This document shows positions 10,546-46,569 of a DNA stretch of 46,880 nt, in pieces (position 1 is the stretch's first letter; the number at the start of each line of letters is the position of its first letter). Below the pieces are notes generated by a model that saw nothing but the letters and a program-made list of their open reading frames with translations, ran no database searches and had not been told where the DNA came from. The position numbers and the translations under genes are program-made. This stretch comes from Escherichia phage BEK2, in the sequence record MN158206.1. One strand, written 5' to 3'.

Positions 10546-10578
10546 TAACTCATCGAAACGAAATGAAGGAATTAAGAA

Positions 10579-23296: not shown

Positions 23297-23320
23297 TTAT
23301 CGCCAATTTCACCACAAATC

Positions 23321-23645
23321 ACAGTTACACGTAACCGATGTAACTCGATGTATACAATCTCATTCGCGGAAAATGATATACGCGCCGTTACGCAAATTTA
23401 CGCAATAGTTACATTAAAATATCTATATATATCAACCTTTTACTATTATTATTATTATATATATTACTGTGTATATCATGTAACTACTGTTCTGGAGTGT
23501 TCCGGTTATAATTTTAATATCATGTGGATTTATACAGTATTGTGTGGCAGCCATACCAATGCACCCCCCGCAAGAAACGGTATACACGATATACACGATG
23601 GTTACATTGAGCTATATCTGGGCTGAGATGCCATTTTACGTAACA
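23321..23645. repeat. non-coding iteron/AT-rich region A (homolog of 41906-42231)
   Basis: More than 8 copies of GTAAC/GTTAC (often CGTAAC). (TA)n and (TAT)n runs (23443-23466). TATACACGA x2 (23581-23598). A 42-nt block (23603-23644) is 36/42 identical to 42189-42230. Only junk ORFs (poly-Tyr). Confidence 0.8.
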
Positions 23646-29139: not shown

Positions 29140-29157
29140 ATAGCACGAATTGCTAAG
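29140..29157 (+). promoter_or_regulatory. orphan box copy, antisense to the local operon
   Basis: ATAGCACGAATTGCTAAG on the + strand between two minus-strand genes. Nearest -10-like hexamer is TATAAA (29180-29185) at 24 nt, and it runs straight into the terminator hairpin. Confidence 0.5.
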
Positions 29158-30164: not shown

Positions 30165-30209
30165 ATTATGGCACATCCAATTCTTTACTCTTTAGCTTTT
30201 CGTGCCAAT
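30165..30209 (-). promoter_or_regulatory. box promoter cassette P9 (variant box)
   Basis: Minus strand: TTGGCACGAAAAGCTAAA (30208-30191) right after the stop TAA, 22-nt spacer, CATAAT (30170-30165). A GGATGT/ACATCC hairpin plus a T-run overlaps the -10. Confidence 0.5.
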
Positions 30210-30438: not shown

Positions 30439-30482
30439 ACCATACCTCATCCATGAGAAATGTCTTTAGCTTTTCGTGCTGC
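30439..30482 (-). promoter_or_regulatory. box promoter cassette P10 (inside coding sequence)
   Basis: Minus strand: GCAGCACGAAAAGCTAAA (30482-30465), 22-nt spacer, TATGGT (30444-30439), leader ACATCGAAAGCCGA. The box is translated as AARKAK near the C-terminus of the HTH protein. Confidence 0.5.
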
Positions 30483-30932
30483 CTCGTTAGCGGCCTTAAT
30501 CTTGCGCCATGAGCGACACTCTGGCTTGGTGGCTAATTCTGCATCAGTGACCACGCGCAGCATGTGACGTTTTTTGCAGCGCAGGGTTAGAGGCTTGCCA
30601 TTGCCGTCGAATTGCAGATCTGGTCGGCAGAATGTGGCTCTAAAACCTTCCCCGGTTCGTTTGTAGTAGTTGTGCGATAACTGAGCACCACGTGCGGAAA
30701 TCATGCCGCGCTTAAACCATTCTTCTACAGCCTGTGGTGTTACCTTTAGCTGCTTTGCGATATTCGCTTTTGTGCCGAAGAAATCAAGAACTATATCTAG
30801 TCGCGCGCGTAGTCCGGCTCTTACTTCATCTTTTAAAACGTAGTAGCCTGAAGGTCGTTTGCGTTGTTTTTTGTCTTCAGTGCGGATAGTTCCGTTGTTC
30901 CCGTTGATTGTTCGCTTGTCGACTGTATTCAT
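30447..30932 (-). CDS. HTH DNA-binding protein (Cro/YdaS-like), candidate transcription regulator
   Basis: GTKANIAKQLKVTPQAVEEWFKRG is a helix-turn-helix segment. Basic N- and C-termini. GAGGT SD. Confidence 0.6.
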   Translation of the reverse strand: MNTVDKRTINGNNGTIRTEDKKQRKRPSGYYVLKDEVRAGLRARLDIVLDFFGTKANIAKQLKVTPQAVEEWFKRGMISARGAQLSHNYYKRTGEGFRATFCRPDLQFDGNGKPLTLRCKKRHMLRVVTDAELATKPECRSWRKIKAANEAARKAKDISHG

Positions 30933-30944
30933 TTCATTACCTCA

Positions 30945-30987
30945 GTAGCATTTTTTGTTAAAAGTCATTCTGATTTGATGGTAGTAT
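30945..30987 (+). promoter_or_regulatory. box promoter cassette P11 (variant box) for the helicase operon
   Basis: GTAGCATTTTTTGTTAAA (30945-30962), 21-nt spacer, TAGTAT (30982-30987) with TG two nt upstream. Confidence 0.5.
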
Positions 30988-31014
30988 TGTACTCAATTAA
31001 ACGCTACAAGACAA
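30986..31014 (-). promoter_or_regulatory. sigma70-type promoter for the HTH gene
   Basis: Minus strand: TTGTCT (31014-31009), 17-nt spacer, TACAAT (30991-30986). Its -10 overlaps the -10 of P11 by 2 bp. Confidence 0.5.
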
Positions 31015-31033
31015 TTTTTATAGGAATTTAGAT

Positions 31034-33028
31034 ATGTTGCCTATCGAGAAGCTGGTTGCCAACTTCGACAAAGAAAGAATCAAGCAGATTCAGAAAGACT
31101 ATCAGTTTGGTGAGATAACCCCTTACGAATTCCAGTGTGTAACATTTGATGCAATTGGCAAGGCTATTGGGAAGTACGAGGCCCCATTTATCGCTGACCT
31201 TTCAGTATCTGCGGGTAAGACAATCATTCTTGCCATGATTGGTAAGCGCATGGAGCAATTGGGGTTGCCTTATATGGTGCTCTCTCGCCAGTCAGAGATA
31301 ATCGGTCAGAACTCGGAAGAACTTCGCAATTTCGGCATCCGTAACAGCGTCTATTGCGCTGGCCTTAACGTTAAATCAGTTTACTACCCGACTATAGTGG
31401 CTAGTGAAGGCACTGCGGCTAACGGCTTGTTTAAGGGGCTTGGTGACTATGTTCCGGCAGTTATAGCTATAGATGAATGCCACATGGTAGATCACATGGA
31501 TATCGTGGAAGCAGAGGAGAACGAAGAAACATTTGAGCAAATGAGCACAAAGAAAGGCGAGATGGTTTTCAAGGATGGCGTTAATACCGGATTGCTTGGC
31601 ACTGGTCGCGCACAGTACACGCTAATAATTATTGAGATGAAGCGCCGATGCAAAGAAAAGTACGGTCGTGAGCTTCGTATCTTTGGCCTTACTGGCAGCC
31701 CGTATCGTAACAATGATCATATTGTCGTTAGCAATCCAAATGTTCGTGGATTCTGGCGCAAAACAGTGATTCAGGTTCCAACGAATTACCTTGTTGATTT
31801 GGGGTTTGTTGTACCAACCGTTTACGGAGAGGTTGGTGATTTGGGTTACGACCTTAGCGAATTTTCGCCAGACGGTAGTGATGGTGTGAAAGACTTTAGT
31901 AAGAAAGAAATGGATGCGATGACTGCGAAGATTCACGACAACCAATCCATGACTCAAAAGATAATGCAGTTTGTCGTCAAAATACTGGAGACTCGCAACG
32001 CCGCATTGGTCACCTGCGCTGGAAAACTCCATTGTGATGAGGCTGCTGCGGCATTGCCGGATGGATACCCTTACGCCATTATCACCGATTCTACCGGAGA
32101 GAGGAAGCGCAGAGAGATTCTTGCAGATTGCCAGACTGGAAAGTACAAGATTATCTTTCAGATTGGATGCCTAACTACGGGCGTAAACCAACCGCTGTGG
32201 GATACTAGCGTCATACTACGCAAGATTGGCAGTCTAACATTAATGATTCAGCTTCTTGGTCGTGGCATGCGAAAACTAAAAAAGGCGCACATAGATGCTG
32301 GGTTCAAGAAGGAAGACCACTTGGTATTAGACTTTGCCGGAGCGCTTGATGACATGGCAGAGCTTTACTTTGACCCAATAATTGAAGAGATTCAGGCTGA
32401 AAAGTTTAAATCCTCAAGAAAAGGTGGTGGTGAGGTTCGCCAGTGTCCGCAATGTGGATATGAGAACTCGCCATTTGCTAGACGCTGTAGCAATAAGATT
32501 GATGGTGTTAGATGCGATCACTTTTTCCAGTTCACAACATGTGATGATATTACCGACCAACAAACAAAGGCAGTAATCAAGAAAGGTTGTGGAACTAAAA
32601 ATGACATAGCAGCAAAAGTTTGTCGTGAATGCGGAGAAATGCTTAAAGACCCAAACGCTAACCTGACTGGAAAGATGTATCGTCGCGGAGACTATTTGCG
32701 TGTTTATGACTTCCAGGTTGGATTGAGCAAAAATCAAACTGGCATAGTAGTTAAGTATAATATCATGGCGCACAACGGAGAAAGATTTAACGCTTGGGAG
32801 TTCTTTAATCCAGAGTCTGACCATCGAGTTTGTAGTGTGCTGTGGAAAAACTTTTGCCTTTCTCATATTGAGAATCGCACAGAAGCAGCACGAATTGGCA
32901 GACTGAAGAATGCCAGAATGATTATGACTAACGCAGATAAGTTTCGTGCGCCAGTCCAGGTGACACACCGCAAGAATGGCAAAGGAAAGGACGTGATCGC
33001 TTTTAAGAATTTTGGAGAATTGTTATGA
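31034..33028 (+). CDS. SF2 DNA helicase with C-terminal zinc ribbons
   Basis: Walker A SVSAGKT, DEAH-type AIDECH, motif VI-like LLGRGMR. Two CxxC...CxxC ribbons (CPQCGYEN...RRCS; CGTKND...CRECG). Confidence 0.85.
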   Translation: MLPIEKLVANFDKERIKQIQKDYQFGEITPYEFQCVTFDAIGKAIGKYEAPFIADLSVSAGKTIILAMIGKRMEQLGLPYMVLSRQSEIIGQNSEELRNFGIRNSVYCAGLNVKSVYYPTIVASEGTAANGLFKGLGDYVPAVIAIDECHMVDHMDIVEAEENEETFEQMSTKKGEMVFKDGVNTGLLGTGRAQYTLIIIEMKRRCKEKYGRELRIFGLTGSPYRNNDHIVVSNPNVRGFWRKTVIQVPTNYLVDLGFVVPTVYGEVGDLGYDLSEFSPDGSDGVKDFSKKEMDAMTAKIHDNQSMTQKIMQFVVKILETRNAALVTCAGKLHCDEAAAALPDGYPYAIITDSTGERKRREILADCQTGKYKIIFQIGCLTTGVNQPLWDTSVILRKIGSLTLMIQLLGRGMRKLKKAHIDAGFKKEDHLVLDFAGALDDMAELYFDPIIEEIQAEKFKSSRKGGGEVRQCPQCGYENSPFARRCSNKIDGVRCDHFFQFTTCDDITDQQTKAVIKKGCGTKNDIAAKVCRECGEMLKDPNANLTGKMYRRGDYLRVYDFQVGLSKNQTGIVVKYNIMAHNGERFNAWEFFNPESDHRVCSVLWKNFCLSHIENRTEAARIGRLKNARMIMTNADKFRAPVQVTHRKNGKGKDVIAFKNFGELL

Positions 33029-33444
33029 AAATTACAGACAAAGTTGACTACATTGAGTTTTACCATGGCCCGGTTAAGTCTTGCCCGAAAGAGGATGACG
33101 AGCAAATCTTTTGCTCTGATTGGGTTAAGTATAACTATCCAGAGATGGTATTTTTCCACTGCGTGAATGAGGGTAAGAAAACCATTGGTCAGGCAAGAAA
33201 AGACCAGGCCAAGGGGCTTCTCAAAGGCGTATCAGACTGTATGTTTCTTATTCCCGAATCTATCCGAGGAAAGTACCCTTTCGGAGCCATAGAGCTAAAG
33301 AGGGCTGGGAAGACGCAGGCTAGTCCGGTCAGCGACGAGCAGAAGTCATTCCTTAAAAGCGTAAGAGAATCAGGAGGTTTTGCCGGGGTAGCCTACGGTC
33401 GCGAGGGTTTTCTAGCGGCGTTTAAAGAAATGATTTCAAAATAG
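33025..33444 (+). CDS. VRR-NUC domain nuclease
   Basis: GVSDCMF...GAIELKRAG has the D...ExK arrangement. ATGA overlap with the helicase gene. Confidence 0.7.
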   Translation: MKITDKVDYIEFYHGPVKSCPKEDDEQIFCSDWVKYNYPEMVFFHCVNEGKKTIGQARKDQAKGLLKGVSDCMFLIPESIRGKYPFGAIELKRAGKTQASPVSDEQKSFLKSVRESGGFAGVAYGREGFLAAFKEMISK

Positions 33445-34650: not shown

Positions 34651-35781
34651 ATGGCAACTGCAAAGATTAGCAACGAACAACTACGCGAAGAACTGGCAAG
34701 TGGCATGACCAACAAGGCAATCGCAGAGAAGTACGGAATGAACATTCGCAATGTTGAATTGCGTCGTAGTAAATTGGCTAAGAGCGGGGAATTGCACGGG
34801 AACCCAGGCATCAAGAAACTAGTTCCTGACGGTTATATGGTTAAAGGCACATCAACAATGATTGACGCGGAAGGTAACGAGAAGATCAGATGGGTTAAAA
34901 CTTCAATAGATAATGAGCGACTTGAGGTTTTAATGGAGCAAGCGCGTGAGGCTTTTTGCTCTGATTTGCCAAAGGCAGATTCGGTCACCCACTCAGGTAA
35001 TGAGGTAAATTCTGAATTAATGACTCTTTACCCGATTTTTGATATCCATATCGGCATGATGGCTCATCGACATGAGTCTGGTGAAAATTATGACACCAAT
35101 ACCGCAGAGAAATTAATGGAATCATATTTCGATCATGCAATTTCTGTATCACCATCATCAGAGAAGGCTGTGATTTTGGTTGGCGGTGATTTCCTTCACT
35201 CTGACGGACTGGAGGCTGTAACTCCAGCAAGTGGGCACTGCCTTGATCAAGATAGTCGATATGCCAAGTTAGTTTATGTGGCAATTCGCTCAATTCGCGG
35301 TGCGGTAGAGAAGATGCTTAAGAAACACAAGGAAGTCGAGATTCAAATCATAGAGGGAAATCATGACCAAAGTGGTATGATTTGGCTTCGTGCGGCAATG
35401 GCTGCATTTTATGAAAGCGAGAGTCGCGTGTTTGTTGATACCAGCCCGGCAATCATGCACAAAACACGATTTGGCTCAACACTACTTGGTTACACGCACG
35501 GTCACACGATGAAGAAAGCAGAAGGCAGGCTTGCAGCTATGGCAACTGATTACAGGAAAGATTTTGGTGAGTGTGAATTTGTTTATTGCCACTCCGGGCA
35601 TTTTCACCACGCAACTGTTACAGAGTGCACTCTTGGGATTGATGAGGTTCACCCAGCTCTGGCTAGCAAGGATGCATATGCCGCTCGAGGAGGGTGGCGA
35701 TCATATCGCCAAGCGGCTGCAATTGTTTACCACAAGAATTTTGGCGAGGTTGGTAGACACATTTATCGCCCAGGTATGTAA
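34651..35781 (+). CDS. HTH-domain / calcineurin-like metallophosphoesterase fusion protein
   Basis: N-terminal GMTNKAIAEKYGMNIRNVELRRSKL (HTH). Phosphoesterase motifs DIHIG, GGDFLH, GNHD, THGH, GHFHH. Confidence 0.7.
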   Translation: MATAKISNEQLREELASGMTNKAIAEKYGMNIRNVELRRSKLAKSGELHGNPGIKKLVPDGYMVKGTSTMIDAEGNEKIRWVKTSIDNERLEVLMEQAREAFCSDLPKADSVTHSGNEVNSELMTLYPIFDIHIGMMAHRHESGENYDTNTAEKLMESYFDHAISVSPSSEKAVILVGGDFLHSDGLEAVTPASGHCLDQDSRYAKLVYVAIRSIRGAVEKMLKKHKEVEIQIIEGNHDQSGMIWLRAAMAAFYESESRVFVDTSPAIMHKTRFGSTLLGYTHGHTMKKAEGRLAAMATDYRKDFGECEFVYCHSGHFHHATVTECTLGIDEVHPALASKDAYAARGGWRSYRQAAAIVYHKNFGEVGRHIYRPGM

Positions 35782-36389: not shown

Positions 36390-36875
36390 ATGAAGCAGAA
36401 GCTGGCCATTAGTGCTGCGACAGCTGCGGCAATATACATAGCAGCGCCACTTATTGAGCTTGTGGAGGGTGTAGAGAATAAGCCGTATATTGACATTGCT
36501 GGGGTGAAAACAGTTTGTTCAGGGATCACTGGCAACGACGTAGTTTGGGGTAAAACTTACAGTAACAGGGAATGCAGAAACCTGCTGGAGAAACACATTC
36601 AGATTCATGGGAAGCATGTTCAGGATGCTGTAACCTACCAAATTGCACCGCAGACAAGGGCGGCTTTAATCAGCTTTAGCTACAATGTTGGCGGCTCTGC
36701 GATGAGGAAGTCTACGGCTGTTAAATTAATTAACCAGGGCAAGATTGAGCAAGGTTGCAAGGCTCTCGGGATGTGGGACAAGGCTCGAGTTAACGGGAAA
36801 CTGAAGGTAGTTAAAGGCCTGGTGAATCGCAGGAATGAGGAGATTAAGTTATGCTTAAGTGGATTGCAGCGTTAG
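36390..36875 (+). CDS. SAR endolysin (T4-lysozyme/GH24 type)
   Basis: N-terminal signal-anchor AISAATAAAIYIAAPLI. Catalytic E-x8-D-x5-T spacing in EGVENKPYIDIAGVKT. Overall pattern as in the P21 R family. Confidence 0.8.
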   Translation: MKQKLAISAATAAAIYIAAPLIELVEGVENKPYIDIAGVKTVCSGITGNDVVWGKTYSNRECRNLLEKHIQIHGKHVQDAVTYQIAPQTRAALISFSYNVGGSAMRKSTAVKLINQGKIEQGCKALGMWDKARVNGKLKVVKGLVNRRNEEIKLCLSGLQR

Positions 36876-41670: not shown

Positions 41671-41715
41671 ATAATAGCGAATCACACCCGATCGGTCATT
41701 AGCAAAAAGTGCTAT
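41671..41715 (-). promoter_or_regulatory. box promoter cassette P18
   Basis: Minus strand: ATAGCACTTTTTGCTAAT (41715-41698), 23-nt spacer, TATTAT (41676-41671), leader CCATCGAAACGAAG. Confidence 0.6.
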
Positions 41716-41728
41716 TCGTTAGATTTAT

Positions 41729-41816
41729 GGATTGTTGCAGATATTGCAATGATTCACATAATTATTGCACATACAGCAATATTGCTTCAGATGCAATGAT
41801 GTTTTTGATTGTTGCG
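41729..41816. repeat. cluster of ATTGCA/TGCAAT-type short repeats and palindromes
   Basis: GATTGTTGC x2 (41730, 41807), TGCAATGAT x2 (41745, 41792), palindromes ATTGCAAT (41744-41751) and GCAATATTGC (41776-41785). Non-coding. Confidence 0.7.
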
Positions 41817-41905
41817 AAAAGTGAAATGAAGTGGGGAGTGAGCGAATGAAAGATGGATGGACTACCATACAAGTTGATTTTGATTCTGGCTGGGCCATTT
41901 TCACG

Positions 41906-42231
41906 CCTACACGTAACGCCAGTAGCGCGATGTAAGCCAAGGCCAATCGTTACGTGAGTTACGCGCAGCTACGCCCGGACTTACACTATAAGTGCTTAAT
42001 ATATATATATATCTTCTTTCTATTATTATTATTAATATTAATATTATTGTATGTAAGTCGTGTAACGTGGGTCCTAGCGATATCTATATGTTTTTTCCTA
42101 TCAGAATACATTATTGCTATTTTATGTGGGATTTAGCCAGTATGGGGCCATTGCACTCATTTGCCTCGTTACACGCACGACACGAAACTACATTGAGCTA
42201 TAGCTGGGCTGGTGTGCCATTTCGCGTAACG
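41906..42231. repeat. non-coding iteron/AT-rich region B (homolog of 23321-23645)
   Basis: CGTAACG/CGTTACG copies at 41912, 41948, 41958, 42062, 42167, 42225. (TA)n at 41998-42012 and (TAT)n at 42021-42048. A 42-nt block (42189-42230) is 36/42 identical to 23603-23644. Confidence 0.8.
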
Positions 42232-42258
42232 ACCCCCAAAAGTTACCAAAAATTACAC

Positions 42259-42287
42259 TTGACTACATGTGTAAGTCGGGATATGAT
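42259..42287 (+). promoter_or_regulatory. sigma70-type promoter
   Basis: TTGACT (42259-42264), 17-nt spacer, TATGAT (42282-42287). No palindromic box. Confidence 0.65.
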
Positions 42288-42318
42288 GGACTCAACTTAA
42301 ACGAGAGGAGTGATAGAG

Positions 42319-42798
42319 ATGAACGAGAAGGTAACATTAGGCCAAGTGATTCGTGAGATGGTAAAGGCGGCGCTTAAGTCTGAGGATAAGCAGATCAGCG
42401 TGACACTCAACAAGATTGAGAGCCTTATTGGCGCAGAGGAGGGTGGTCTACATAAGCTTAAGAGCTCATACATCTATAATACAACGGCTCGCATGCCTGA
42501 GTTGAGAGATGCCGGACTGAAGGCGACCCACCATTATGATGAGGATGAGGGTGATAGTGAGTTTGGTGAAACCACTCTGGCTGGGGAAAAGAAGTTAGTT
42601 ATCAAGCTGATTCCTGGAGCTGCAAACATTGGAATCAGGAAGAAGACCAACGACGCGATCAAGGATGAGGCAATCAATGGGTTCAAGGCCAAGATTTCGA
42701 AGGTGATGCCAGACCTCTCTGAGTATGAGGGTGAAGCGCTTGCAGCCGCCATGAAGGCCATTAAGGATTACCGTTTAATTATTGAGGAGATTAAGTAA
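42319..42798 (+). CDS. hypothetical acidic protein
   Basis: 159 aa from ATG 42319 (GAGAGGAG SD). TAATG coupling to the truncated P-loop paralog. Confidence 0.6.
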   Translation: MNEKVTLGQVIREMVKAALKSEDKQISVTLNKIESLIGAEEGGLHKLKSSYIYNTTARMPELRDAGLKATHHYDEDEGDSEFGETTLAGEKKLVIKLIPGAANIGIRKKTNDAIKDEAINGFKAKISKVMPDLSEYEGEALAAAMKAIKDYRLIIEEIK

Positions 42799-44149: not shown

Positions 44150-44193
44150 ATAGCACTTTTTGCCTAACCCTCTTCGGAGGGTTTTGTTATAGT
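44150..44193 (+). promoter_or_regulatory. box promoter cassette P20 with nested terminator
   Basis: ATAGCACTTTTTGCCTAA (44150-44167), CCCTC-TTCG-GAGGG-TTTT (44168-44185), TATAGT (44188-44193), leader CATCGAAAGCAAAC. Confidence 0.6.
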
Positions 44194-46492: not shown

Positions 46493-46569
46493 GCTCGAGT
46501 GGCGAAAGTGGATATCGCAAGAGACTTCTAATCTCTAGATTGCTGGTTCGAATCCAGCCTCGGGCGCCA
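46493..46569 (+). tRNA. tRNA-Arg (anticodon UCU), CCA encoded
   Basis: Hand-folded cloverleaf. Acceptor GCTCGAG/CTCGGGC (one G:U). D stem GCGA/TCGC. Anticodon stem AGAGA/TCTCT with loop CT-TCT-AA (anticodon at 46527-46529). 5-nt variable loop. T arm GCTGG-TTCGAAT-CCAGC. Discriminator G plus CCA. Confidence 0.9.

Follow-up and report, generated by a model that had tools for sequence, protein, structure and literature searches.

Escherichia phage BEK2 is a virulent, T1-like phage of the Drexlerviridae (Braunvirinae), and the DNA analyzed here, referred to below as the window, is its 46,880-nucleotide sequence record MN158206.1. In the window, a 101-bp gap separates the minus-strand gene of a helix-turn-helix (HTH) regulator from a plus-strand operon for a helicase and a VRR-NUC nuclease, and this gap contains one copy of a box that is repeated throughout the genome. 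We found that this box is, by its sequence, a consensus-grade marbox, the asymmetric site to which the host activators MarA, SoxS, and Rob of the AraC family (and RamA in Klebsiella) bind as monomers. Our reading, on which we consider the evidence to be evenly balanced, is that the helicase promoter might be a class II marbox promoter competing with a plain sigma70 promoter of the regulator gene. Earlier work had already established the repeat itself as well as both promoter types, class II marbox and bidirectional. Two points appear to be new, namely that the Drexlerviridae repeat looks like a consensus marbox in the class II position and that the regulator/helicase junction would couple a marbox promoter and a sigma70 promoter via a common -10 region. 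In the literature that we searched, no paper ties marbox, MarA, SoxS, or RamA to T1-like phages.

The phage box and host marbox sites

The marbox has been described both as a pattern, GCAHWWWWTGYYAAA (PMC6900184), and as a consensus, gcactaattgctaaa (PMC5684230), and the phage boxes resemble both closely. When at most one mismatch is allowed, GCAHWWWWTGYYAAA matches the window 21 times, as compared to 1.77 matches expected and a maximum of 6 in shuffled sequences (n = 100). The core of the helicase box (30948-30962) matches this pattern with 0 mismatches, while four other boxes in the window are identical to gcactaattgctaaa at 15/15 positions. We also scored the boxes with a weight matrix built from 33 MarA sites determined by chromatin immunoprecipitation sequencing (ChIP-seq; Sharma et al.), the genuine sites being scored leave-one-out. 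The phage boxes score 13.1-19.2 bits, with 15.1 for the helicase box; the genuine sites have a median score of 10.9 bits, and their upper quartile is 14.1 bits. A single base distinguishes the helicase box from the ypeC marbox, gcattttttgctaaa. At the level of profiles, the mean column correlation between the phage box and MarA sites reaches 0.92 when they are aligned in the forward register, against 0.47 for the second-best register, and the information content of the box is highest at the two marbox recognition elements.

Class II marbox sites are in the forward orientation, overlap the -35 region, and are centered between -36 and -55 (PMC12052159), the RamA site at micF being centered at about -41 (PMC8811837). 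The helicase box is also in the forward orientation, with GCAC distal and AAA beside the core promoter. Reading Escherichia coli micF directly, we found GCACTGAATGTCAAA, 20 nt, and TAGAAT, which corresponds to 35 nt from the G to the -10, with the marbox spanning -48 to -34 relative to the annotated start. This 35-nt spacing is also the modal spacing of the phage promoters, while the helicase promoter has 34 nt, and the best -10-like hexamers at fumC and ybjC are found at 34 and 36 nt. On this sequence measure, the helicase promoter, with its 34-nt spacing, falls inside the range of host class II promoters. The sequence, orientation, and -10 distance that characterize class II are thus all present at the helicase promoter, its position relative to +1 being counted from a predicted start.

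The phage promoters share with the host class II promoters (micF, fumC, ybjC, lpxC P2, and the RamA-dependent micF of Klebsiella) a 15-bp forward site, the lack of a usable -35, and a center at about -40 or -41. They differ from them in that the phage is virulent, with about 21 such promoters over most of its operons, and in that its boxes are nearer to the consensus than most host sites. Moreover, the phage box is a candidate MarA/SoxS/Rob site as judged from sequence, and the -10 region of the helicase promoter is also common with a divergent promoter. A more distant likeness is with the middle promoters of T4, where a MotA box at about -30 replaces the -35 ahead of a good -10 and where phage MotA and AsiA are required. 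Both systems have a phage-wide box in place of a -35 and a good -10, but the box is here centered at about -40 and is equal to a host site.

How widespread is this architecture in the genome? The box occurs in 22 copies in the window, 21 of which display a full promoter architecture, i.e., taAATAGCAC(t/g)aATTGCTAAA, 20 nt, a -10 that is most often TATAGT, and then CATCGAAACGAA. In 18 of these 21 promoters, 35 nt separate the G of GCAC from the -10; the spacing is 34 nt in two others, including the helicase promoter, and 36 nt in the last one. Their -10 hexamers match TATAAT at 5 or 6/6 positions in 17/21 cases, and an extended -10 TG is present in 8/21, again including the helicase promoter. 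Boxes are found ahead of nearly every operon, and box promoters precede many of the small genes annotated without a function. In T1, there are 22 matches to the box with the same spacing as in the window phage, one of which precedes the primase gene. The CATCGAAACGAA element starts 4-5 nt past the -10 of most box promoters (e.g., at 10551-10562) and would correspond to the first bases of the transcripts, the helicase start region CAATTAAACGCT being a degenerate copy of it. Since a related element, CAACTTAAACGAG, follows the sigma70 promoter at 42259-42287, CATCGAAACGAA-type elements are not specific to box promoters.

This repeat has been described before, in a re-annotation of TLS that reported aaATAGCACnnnTTGnTAAAA, a direct repeat of 21 nt that occurs between genes at 18 positions, oriented with transcription and upstream of start codons (PMC11447400). 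That study noted similar repeats in T1, Rtp, and Rogue1, left their function between a stoperator, an enhancer site, and an UP element, and listed just three sigma70-like intergenic promoters (PMC11447400). The phage box is the same element, with the same intergenic location, orientation, and placement ahead of start codons. In the helicase promoter it reads caGTAGCATTTTTTGTTAAAA, which matches the TLS direct repeat except for a G in place of the first A of ATAGCAC, a T in place of the C of GCAC, and one flanking base. The helicase box points toward the helicase gene and starts 89 nt before its ATG (31034), as compared to about 76 nt between repeat and start codon in TLS. Identity with the marbox, a fixed distance to the -10, and a copy in the regulator/helicase gap are all absent from the TLS paper.

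Two further observations concern the box family. At several box promoters, G+C-rich hairpins with T runs, which resemble terminators, are found between the box and the -10 (44168-44187, 37525-37506 on the minus strand, and 30178-30155 on the minus strand). With a hairpin nested in a box promoter, one short stretch seems to end one transcription unit and begin the next. In addition, the window has one high-scoring orphan box, GCACGAATTGCTAAG at 29143-29157 (+), with no -10 at the proper distance. It opposes the flanking genes, between the start of the tail-fiber gene and the primase terminator, and is kept with an identical sequence in T1 (locus 34905-34919 (+)).

As for a phage-encoded activator, six-frame phmmer and hmmsearch searches found no MarA/SoxS-like open reading frame in the window phage or T1 (best E-value 0.11, which is at noise level), although this result is only weak evidence against a phage-encoded homolog.

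Predicted divergent promoters with overlapping -10 elements

The initial annotation of the gap had proposed a box-type rightward promoter for the helicase/VRR-NUC operon and a leftward sigma70-type promoter for the HTH gene, arranged face-to-face, with -10 hexamers that overlap by 2 bp. All the elements that it named (the box, TAGTAT, TTGTCT-17-TACAAT, the Shine-Dalgarno [SD] sequence, and the ATG) are exactly where it had placed them, and the 2-bp overlap is genuine (Table 1). The face-to-face arrangement has to be abandoned. With starts predicted about 7 nt downstream of each -10 hexamer, the rightward start (~30994/5) lies to the right of the leftward one (~30979), and the transcripts would therefore diverge, with no overlap. 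In sequence terms, the promoters are divergent, and their cores overlap completely. Their predicted starts are 15-16 bp apart, the definition of bidirectional promoters being 7-25 bp. The opposite -10 hexamers are offset by 4 bp in the window phage, which results in the 2-bp overlap and differs from the symmetric 18-bp class (offset 1); at offset 1, the bottom hexamer is AATACT. Two other proposals of the initial annotation were upheld. The box is in the predicted 5' untranslated region (UTR) of the regulator gene, where its complement occupies +18 to +35, and two polymerases cannot hold both open complexes simultaneously.

We have high confidence that the rightward arm of this promoter pair is real, supported as it is by the box and by a -10 found family-wide. 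A generic sigma70 scan (8 kb) detected no plus-strand sigma70 site at the helicase promoter, and there is no -35-like hexamer 16-18 nt upstream of TAGTAT. The possibility that the box itself might be a displaced -35 was ruled out because TTGCTA or TTGTTA would require a spacer of 21-22 nt (21 nt for the TTGTTA of the helicase box). The leftward arm is probably real as drawn. What argues for it is its position, its overlapping -10, and the comparison with relatives, while its hexamers score at the level expected by chance; the support that the sequences provide for this promoter is thus positional and comparative, and does not come from its score.

We compared the gap in 12 lineages: BEK3 (which stands for the window phage in these comparisons), Veterinaerplatzvirus, Sd1, TR1, phiEB49, CJ19, e4/1c, KLPN1, pSf-1, Pocis76, T1, and Motto. 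In 12/12 lineages, a "TTT-type" box, ATAGCAYTTTTTGYTAAA, abuts the SD of the regulator gene and is followed by a -10, usually TATTAT, and the HTH gene and its adjacent box are conserved together family-wide. The copy in the window phage is slightly degraded, with the leading A changed to G and TATTAT to TAGTAT, while its close relative Veterinaerplatzvirus has TATTAT. In most lineages, the helicase promoter has the same spacing of 34 nt between the G and the -10, the offset being 36 when counted from the T of TAGCA.

On the opposite strand, eight other genera (T1, KLPN1, pSf-1, Pocis76, TR1, phiEB49, CJ19, and e4/1c) are in the 18-bp register. Their top strand reads TATTATA and their bottom strand TATAATA; since an A follows TATTAT, the bottom strand has a perfect TATAAT with a one-base offset and a 5-bp overlap. 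TATAGT, the commonest -10 of the other box promoters (7/21), reads AACTAT on the opposite strand. Candidate leftward -35 elements include TTGAAT-17 in T1, TTGTCA-16 in Klebsiella phage KLPN1, TTGAGT-16 in pSf-1, and TTTAAA-17 in Pocis76. The bottom-strand -10 of Motto is TATCAT, and a bottom -10 overlapping the top -10 is found in every lineage examined. A bottom hexamer shifted by 3 bp (TACAAT), and with it the 2-bp overlap, is confined to BEK3, Sd1, and Veterinaerplatzvirus, which are 100% identical from 30986 through past the helicase ATG, with flanks that have diverged by ~10%. Because the bottom -10 overlap recurs across lineages, the sequences identify a leftward promoter over the helicase -10 as a family feature, the 2-bp register being a lineage variant.

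This arrangement is reminiscent of symmetric bidirectional promoters in E. coli, in whose commonest class the starts are 18 bp apart and -10 positions 2 and 6 are base-paired (Warman et al., bioRxiv 10.1101/2020.01.31.928960). The eight related genera have exactly this 18-bp register, whereas the window phage has a 2-bp overlap and a start spacing of ~15 bp. A further difference would be that the two arms of the phage pair have distinct requirements, namely an activator site upstream for one and a -35 for the other.

Two side observations were made during these comparisons. A TTGTARCGTTTA sequence at 31002-31013 (-), in the leftward promoter region, is found in the BEK3 lineage and at the same place in T1 (locus 36492-36503 (-)) but is absent from the nine other loci compared. 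Its occurrence in both may reflect an operator that spans the lineages, or simply chance. Furthermore, Pseudomonas phage Motto (ON843697.1) and Vibrio phage Vc1 (NC_054898.2), which are Tempevirinae-like, both have an HTH homolog, and Motto displays the same marbox-type promoters, 17 in 40 kb, in a genome with 44.8% GC.

Proposed mechanism and rival explanations

In the mechanism that we propose, the 101-bp gap would hold one compact bidirectional promoter. On the helicase promoter, a protein of the MarA family, occupying roughly -48 to -34, would replace the absent -35 contact. As in the host class II layout (e.g., micF), a single activator molecule at about -41 would touch both region 4 of sigma70 and the alpha C-terminal domain, helping the sigma70 holoenzyme onto the extended -10 TGG-TAGTAT. 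The regulator promoter, TTGTCT-17-TACAAT, would be independent of the activator and have its melting region in common with the helicase promoter, and the leftward transcript would have to pass the occupied box. Since the -10 elements overlap, only one open complex could exist at a time. More activator-assisted polymerase on the helicase promoter would mean fewer starts on the regulator gene, high activator activity favoring the replication operon and low activity favoring the Cro-like regulator. In this scheme, we infer the transcription starts, the box-binding protein, and the effect of the overlap from sequence. That host MarA, SoxS, or Rob is actually used seems to us slightly the better supposition; a regulatory role for the overlap is conceivable, and there we lean a little toward doubt.

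Several considerations weigh against this mechanism, starting with the supply of activator, since ordinary cultures are enough for T1-like phages to grow well. Without stress, cells contain little MarA and SoxS, and Rob is described as largely sequestered (PMC5684230); activation by this family is modest, about twofold for RamA (PMC8811837). In a Klebsiella transposon screen with two Drexlerviridae phages, ramA, rob, marA, and soxS do not appear in the main text (PMC13412088), though redundancy among the four paralogs could hide an effect. For overlapping divergent promoters in E. coli, reciprocal stimulation rather than exclusion has been reported (bioRxiv 10.1101/2020.01.31.928960), and the 15-bp start spacing of the window phage is outside the favored bidirectional classes. 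The leftward promoter scores 9/12, and since the 8-kb sigma70 scan found 16 such sites versus 16.0 expected from shuffles, this score by itself has no weight. Finally, relatives with identical boxes are labeled as Pseudomonas and Vibrio phages. These host labels (Motto and Vc1) look doubtful in view of the 44.8% GC and of nearest relatives that are Citrobacter and Salmonella phages; either the labels are wrong or the boxes are functional without enterobacterial MarA, SoxS, and Rob.

The chance-level score leads to the likeliest of the rival explanations, although we consider it unlikely: the leftward hexamers would be a chance match and the overlap meaningless in regulatory terms, with the HTH gene being started from AATACT (shifted by +1), from a site within the helicase gene, or constitutively at a low rate. 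Besides the frequency of 9/12 sites, the register of the window phage, which is unlike that of the eight other genera, and the weak -35 candidates in TR1 and the phiEB49/CJ19/e4/1c group are in line with this explanation. It is harder to reconcile with the bottom -10 overlap in every lineage examined (TATAAT in eight, TATCAT in Motto) and with a stretch that is invariant in BEK3, Sd1, and Veterinaerplatzvirus. Moreover, upstream of the HTH gene, there is no non-coding DNA other than this gap.

The class II reading also has to be weighed against an activator-free one, which we regard as rather improbable, where the sigma70 holoenzyme would use strong or extended -10 elements, and the box would be an UP-like or bent-DNA enhancer or be bound by host factors without consequence. 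The near-consensus -10 elements (17/21 at 5 or 6/6) and the extended -10 TG (8/21) would suit such promoters, and T1-like phages thrive in unstressed laboratory cells. Nevertheless, UP elements are A/T tracts, unlike the box, which has the G+C core GCAC. The information content of the box is maximal at the two marbox recognition elements, its distance to the -10 is constant within 1 bp, and it is kept across the family while spacers vary freely. Together with the GCAC core, these properties indicate a sequence-specific protein partner, even though UP-element and enhancer roles were both suggested by those who described the repeat (PMC11447400).

Could this partner be the HTH protein itself? 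The initial annotation had considered that it might bind the box. This protein has a Cro-like HTH domain at about residues 31-95, a basic N-terminal motif, and a C-terminal extension without an assigned fold. It belongs to PHROG 2856 ("transcriptional regulator"), and its match to Pfam P22_Cro is under the family cut-off. The AlphaFold2 (AF2) model, with a predicted local distance difference test (pLDDT) score of 87.9 and low confidence for residues 1-20, consists of one all-alpha HTH domain. The best Foldseek matches of this model are the Cro proteins 3bd1, 6on0, 2hin, and 1rzs (Xfaso 1, N15, and P22 Cro), with target TM-scores of 0.64-0.73 and weak E-values (0.016 or higher), and there is no AraC-type fold among its best 50 matches. 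The predicted fold is thus a single Cro-like domain. In an alignment of 36 homologs, the exposed recognition-helix residues differ between genera (QAVEEW, QVVQQW, QTVNQW, QTVQGW, and VTVRNAY) while the box is constant, and the most conserved part is the N-terminal basic motif, DKRTxNGNNGTxRxxDxxxRxKRPxGYYVLKDEVxAGLxAR (residues 5-44), with 14 invariant positions.

As for potential operators of the HTH protein, 30900-31040 contains no inverted or direct repeat of at least 9 nt. The sole dyad in the gap is the 5-bp TAGCA/TGTTA within the box, and there are no palindromic operators of the Cro/CI type. We also considered the box as a symmetric operator, TAGCA-N5-TGCTA, and rejected it because, although the dyad is present, the C of GCAC and the 3' AAA, which are the most conserved positions and are asymmetric, are unmirrored. 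The locus resembles lambda PR/PRM and other Cro/CI-type regions by its Cro-like gene, divergent from replication genes across a short regulatory gap, but it differs from them by the lack of palindromic operators in 30900-31040, by a conserved site that is asymmetric and matches a host activator site, and by the virulence of the phage.

We therefore think it unlikely, more so than the activator-free reading, that the HTH protein, made early from the sigma70 promoter, would bind the box, activate the box operons, and block its own gene in an autoregulatory early-to-middle switch. Some features do agree with such a switch. Within the leftward cluster, the HTH gene alone lacks a box promoter and is served only by a sigma70-type promoter; since the 62-aa gene and the primase gene each have a leftward box promoter, it is the odd one out, which speaks in favor of the switch. 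It is co-conserved with the neighboring box across the family, the half-sites of the pseudo-dyad TAGCA-N5-TGCTA are spaced by 10 bp, which could accommodate a Cro-like dimer, and the invariant basic N-terminal motif parallels the constancy of the box. In addition, the strong sigma70 promoter TTGACT-17-TATGAT at 42259-42287 makes a cascade from sigma70 to box promoters conceivable. However, recognition-helix residues that vary by genus would have to read an unchanged box, the marbox hallmarks (the C of GCAC and the 3' AAA) would remain unmirrored in the dyad, and the match to a host site in sequence, orientation, and spacing would be a coincidence. The predicted single Cro-type domain also counts against the switch, the matched Cro proteins being repressors, as do the box promoters ahead of many small genes, some of which are perhaps early (a timing that we assume). 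With a box ahead of nearly every operon, it is simpler to require a factor that is already there at time zero. On sequence and modeling grounds, the evidence thus weighs against the HTH protein as the binder of the box, without being decisive.

Lastly, we give very little credence to the idea, offered in the TLS paper (PMC11447400), that the boxes are stoperator-like repressor roadblocks as in mycobacteriophage L5, since, although the sites are asymmetric, transcription-oriented, and intergenic and the box at 29143 (+), which has no -10, is conserved in T1, in 21/22 boxes, a -10 comes at a fixed distance of 34-36 nt and leads into a conserved start region, which is a promoter architecture. The G+C core, together with the fixed distance to the -10, led us to consider the UP-element and stoperator readings both unlikely.

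Neighboring features and wider meaning

The features of the locus are listed in Table 1.

Table 1. Coordinates of genes and promoter elements at and near the regulator/helicase gap (window positions)
Feature	Positions	Strand	Details
HTH regulator gene, 161 aa	30447-30932	(-)	ATG at 30932
Rightward operon	31034-33444	(+)	Helicase 31034-33028; VRR-NUC nuclease 33025-33444
Helicase-promoter box, 18 nt, GTAGCATTTTTTGTTAAA	30945-30962	(+)	Read in sequence
Same helicase box, 20-bp form, GTAGCATTTTTTGTTAAAAG	30945-30964	(+)	15-bp core GCATTTTTTGTTAAA at 30948-30962
Rightward helicase extended -10	30979-30987	(+)	TG 30979-30980; hexamer TAGTAT 30982-30987
Predicted rightward start region, CAATTAAACGCT	30994-31005	(+)	From 22 aligned box copies (21 box promoters)
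Leftward -10 hexamer TACAAT	30986-30991	(-)	30986-30987 common with rightward -10
Leftward -35 hexamer TTGTCT	31009-31014	(-)	17-nt spacer to TACAAT
Predicted 47-nt 5' UTR of HTH mRNA	30933-30979	(-)	Putative start ~30979; box complement at +18 to +35
SD GAGGT of HTH gene	30943-30939	(-)	Two bases off the box
Leftward box promoter of 62-aa gene	30439-30479	(-)	GCACGAAAAGCTAAA 30479-30465, 20 nt, TATGGT 30444-30439, then CATCGAAAGCCGA
Leftward box promoter of primase gene	30165-30205	(-)	GCACGAAAAGCTAAA 30205-30191; CATAAT 30170-30165

On the minus strand, the HTH gene is followed by the 62-aa gene and then by the primase gene. The box promoter of the 62-aa gene sits within the 3' end of the HTH gene, and the terminator hairpin at 30178-30155 has the CATAAT of the primase promoter in its loop. 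An Rfam scan of the whole window gave a tRNA as its sole match, with nothing in the regulator/helicase gap. This tRNA gene, at 46493-46566 (+) (RF00005, 63 bits), is missing from the 72 coding sequence (CDS) features of the GenBank record.

The window differs by four indel bases from the record of Escherichia phage BEK3, MN158207.1, and is 4 bases shorter. The offset is 0 until ~23.1 kb, -3 at 23.56 kb, and -4 by 30.4 kb, at least part of it arising in an AT-repeat region near 23.4 kb. Close to the regulator/helicase gap, a window coordinate is therefore the MN158207.1 coordinate minus 4.

Elsewhere in the window, two large non-coding regions, 23300-23560 and 41715-42320, contain many short repeats and inverted repeats (CACGTAACG/CGTTACGTG, TGTAAGTCG) as well as tracts of (TA)n and (TTA)n, the second region closing with the sigma70 promoter TTGACT-17-TATGAT at 42259-42287. 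Both are candidate early-promoter or origin regions. The CGTGTAACG-like words of the large intergenic regions are not significantly enriched genome-wide, with 9 found versus 5.8 expected.

T1-like phages are classic laboratory and fermentation contaminants, and to our knowledge they encode no RNA polymerase or sigma factor. The sequences described here raise the possibility, which we advance tentatively, that phages of the T1 family wire nearly their whole transcription program to host MarA/SoxS/Rob (RamA) via ~21 class II marbox promoters in each genome. Phage development would then be adjusted to the antibiotic, oxidative, or bile-salt stress that the host experiences, and the regulator/helicase promoter would be a decision point between replication and regulator. 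If so, the regulator/helicase gap would be a natural activator-biased bidirectional promoter. Should the box be a working marbox, the TLS/T1 repeat would be explained, a simple genetic test would become possible, and phage growth would be tied to the multidrug-resistance regulators of enteric bacteria, which would bear on the use of phage therapy together with antibiotics.

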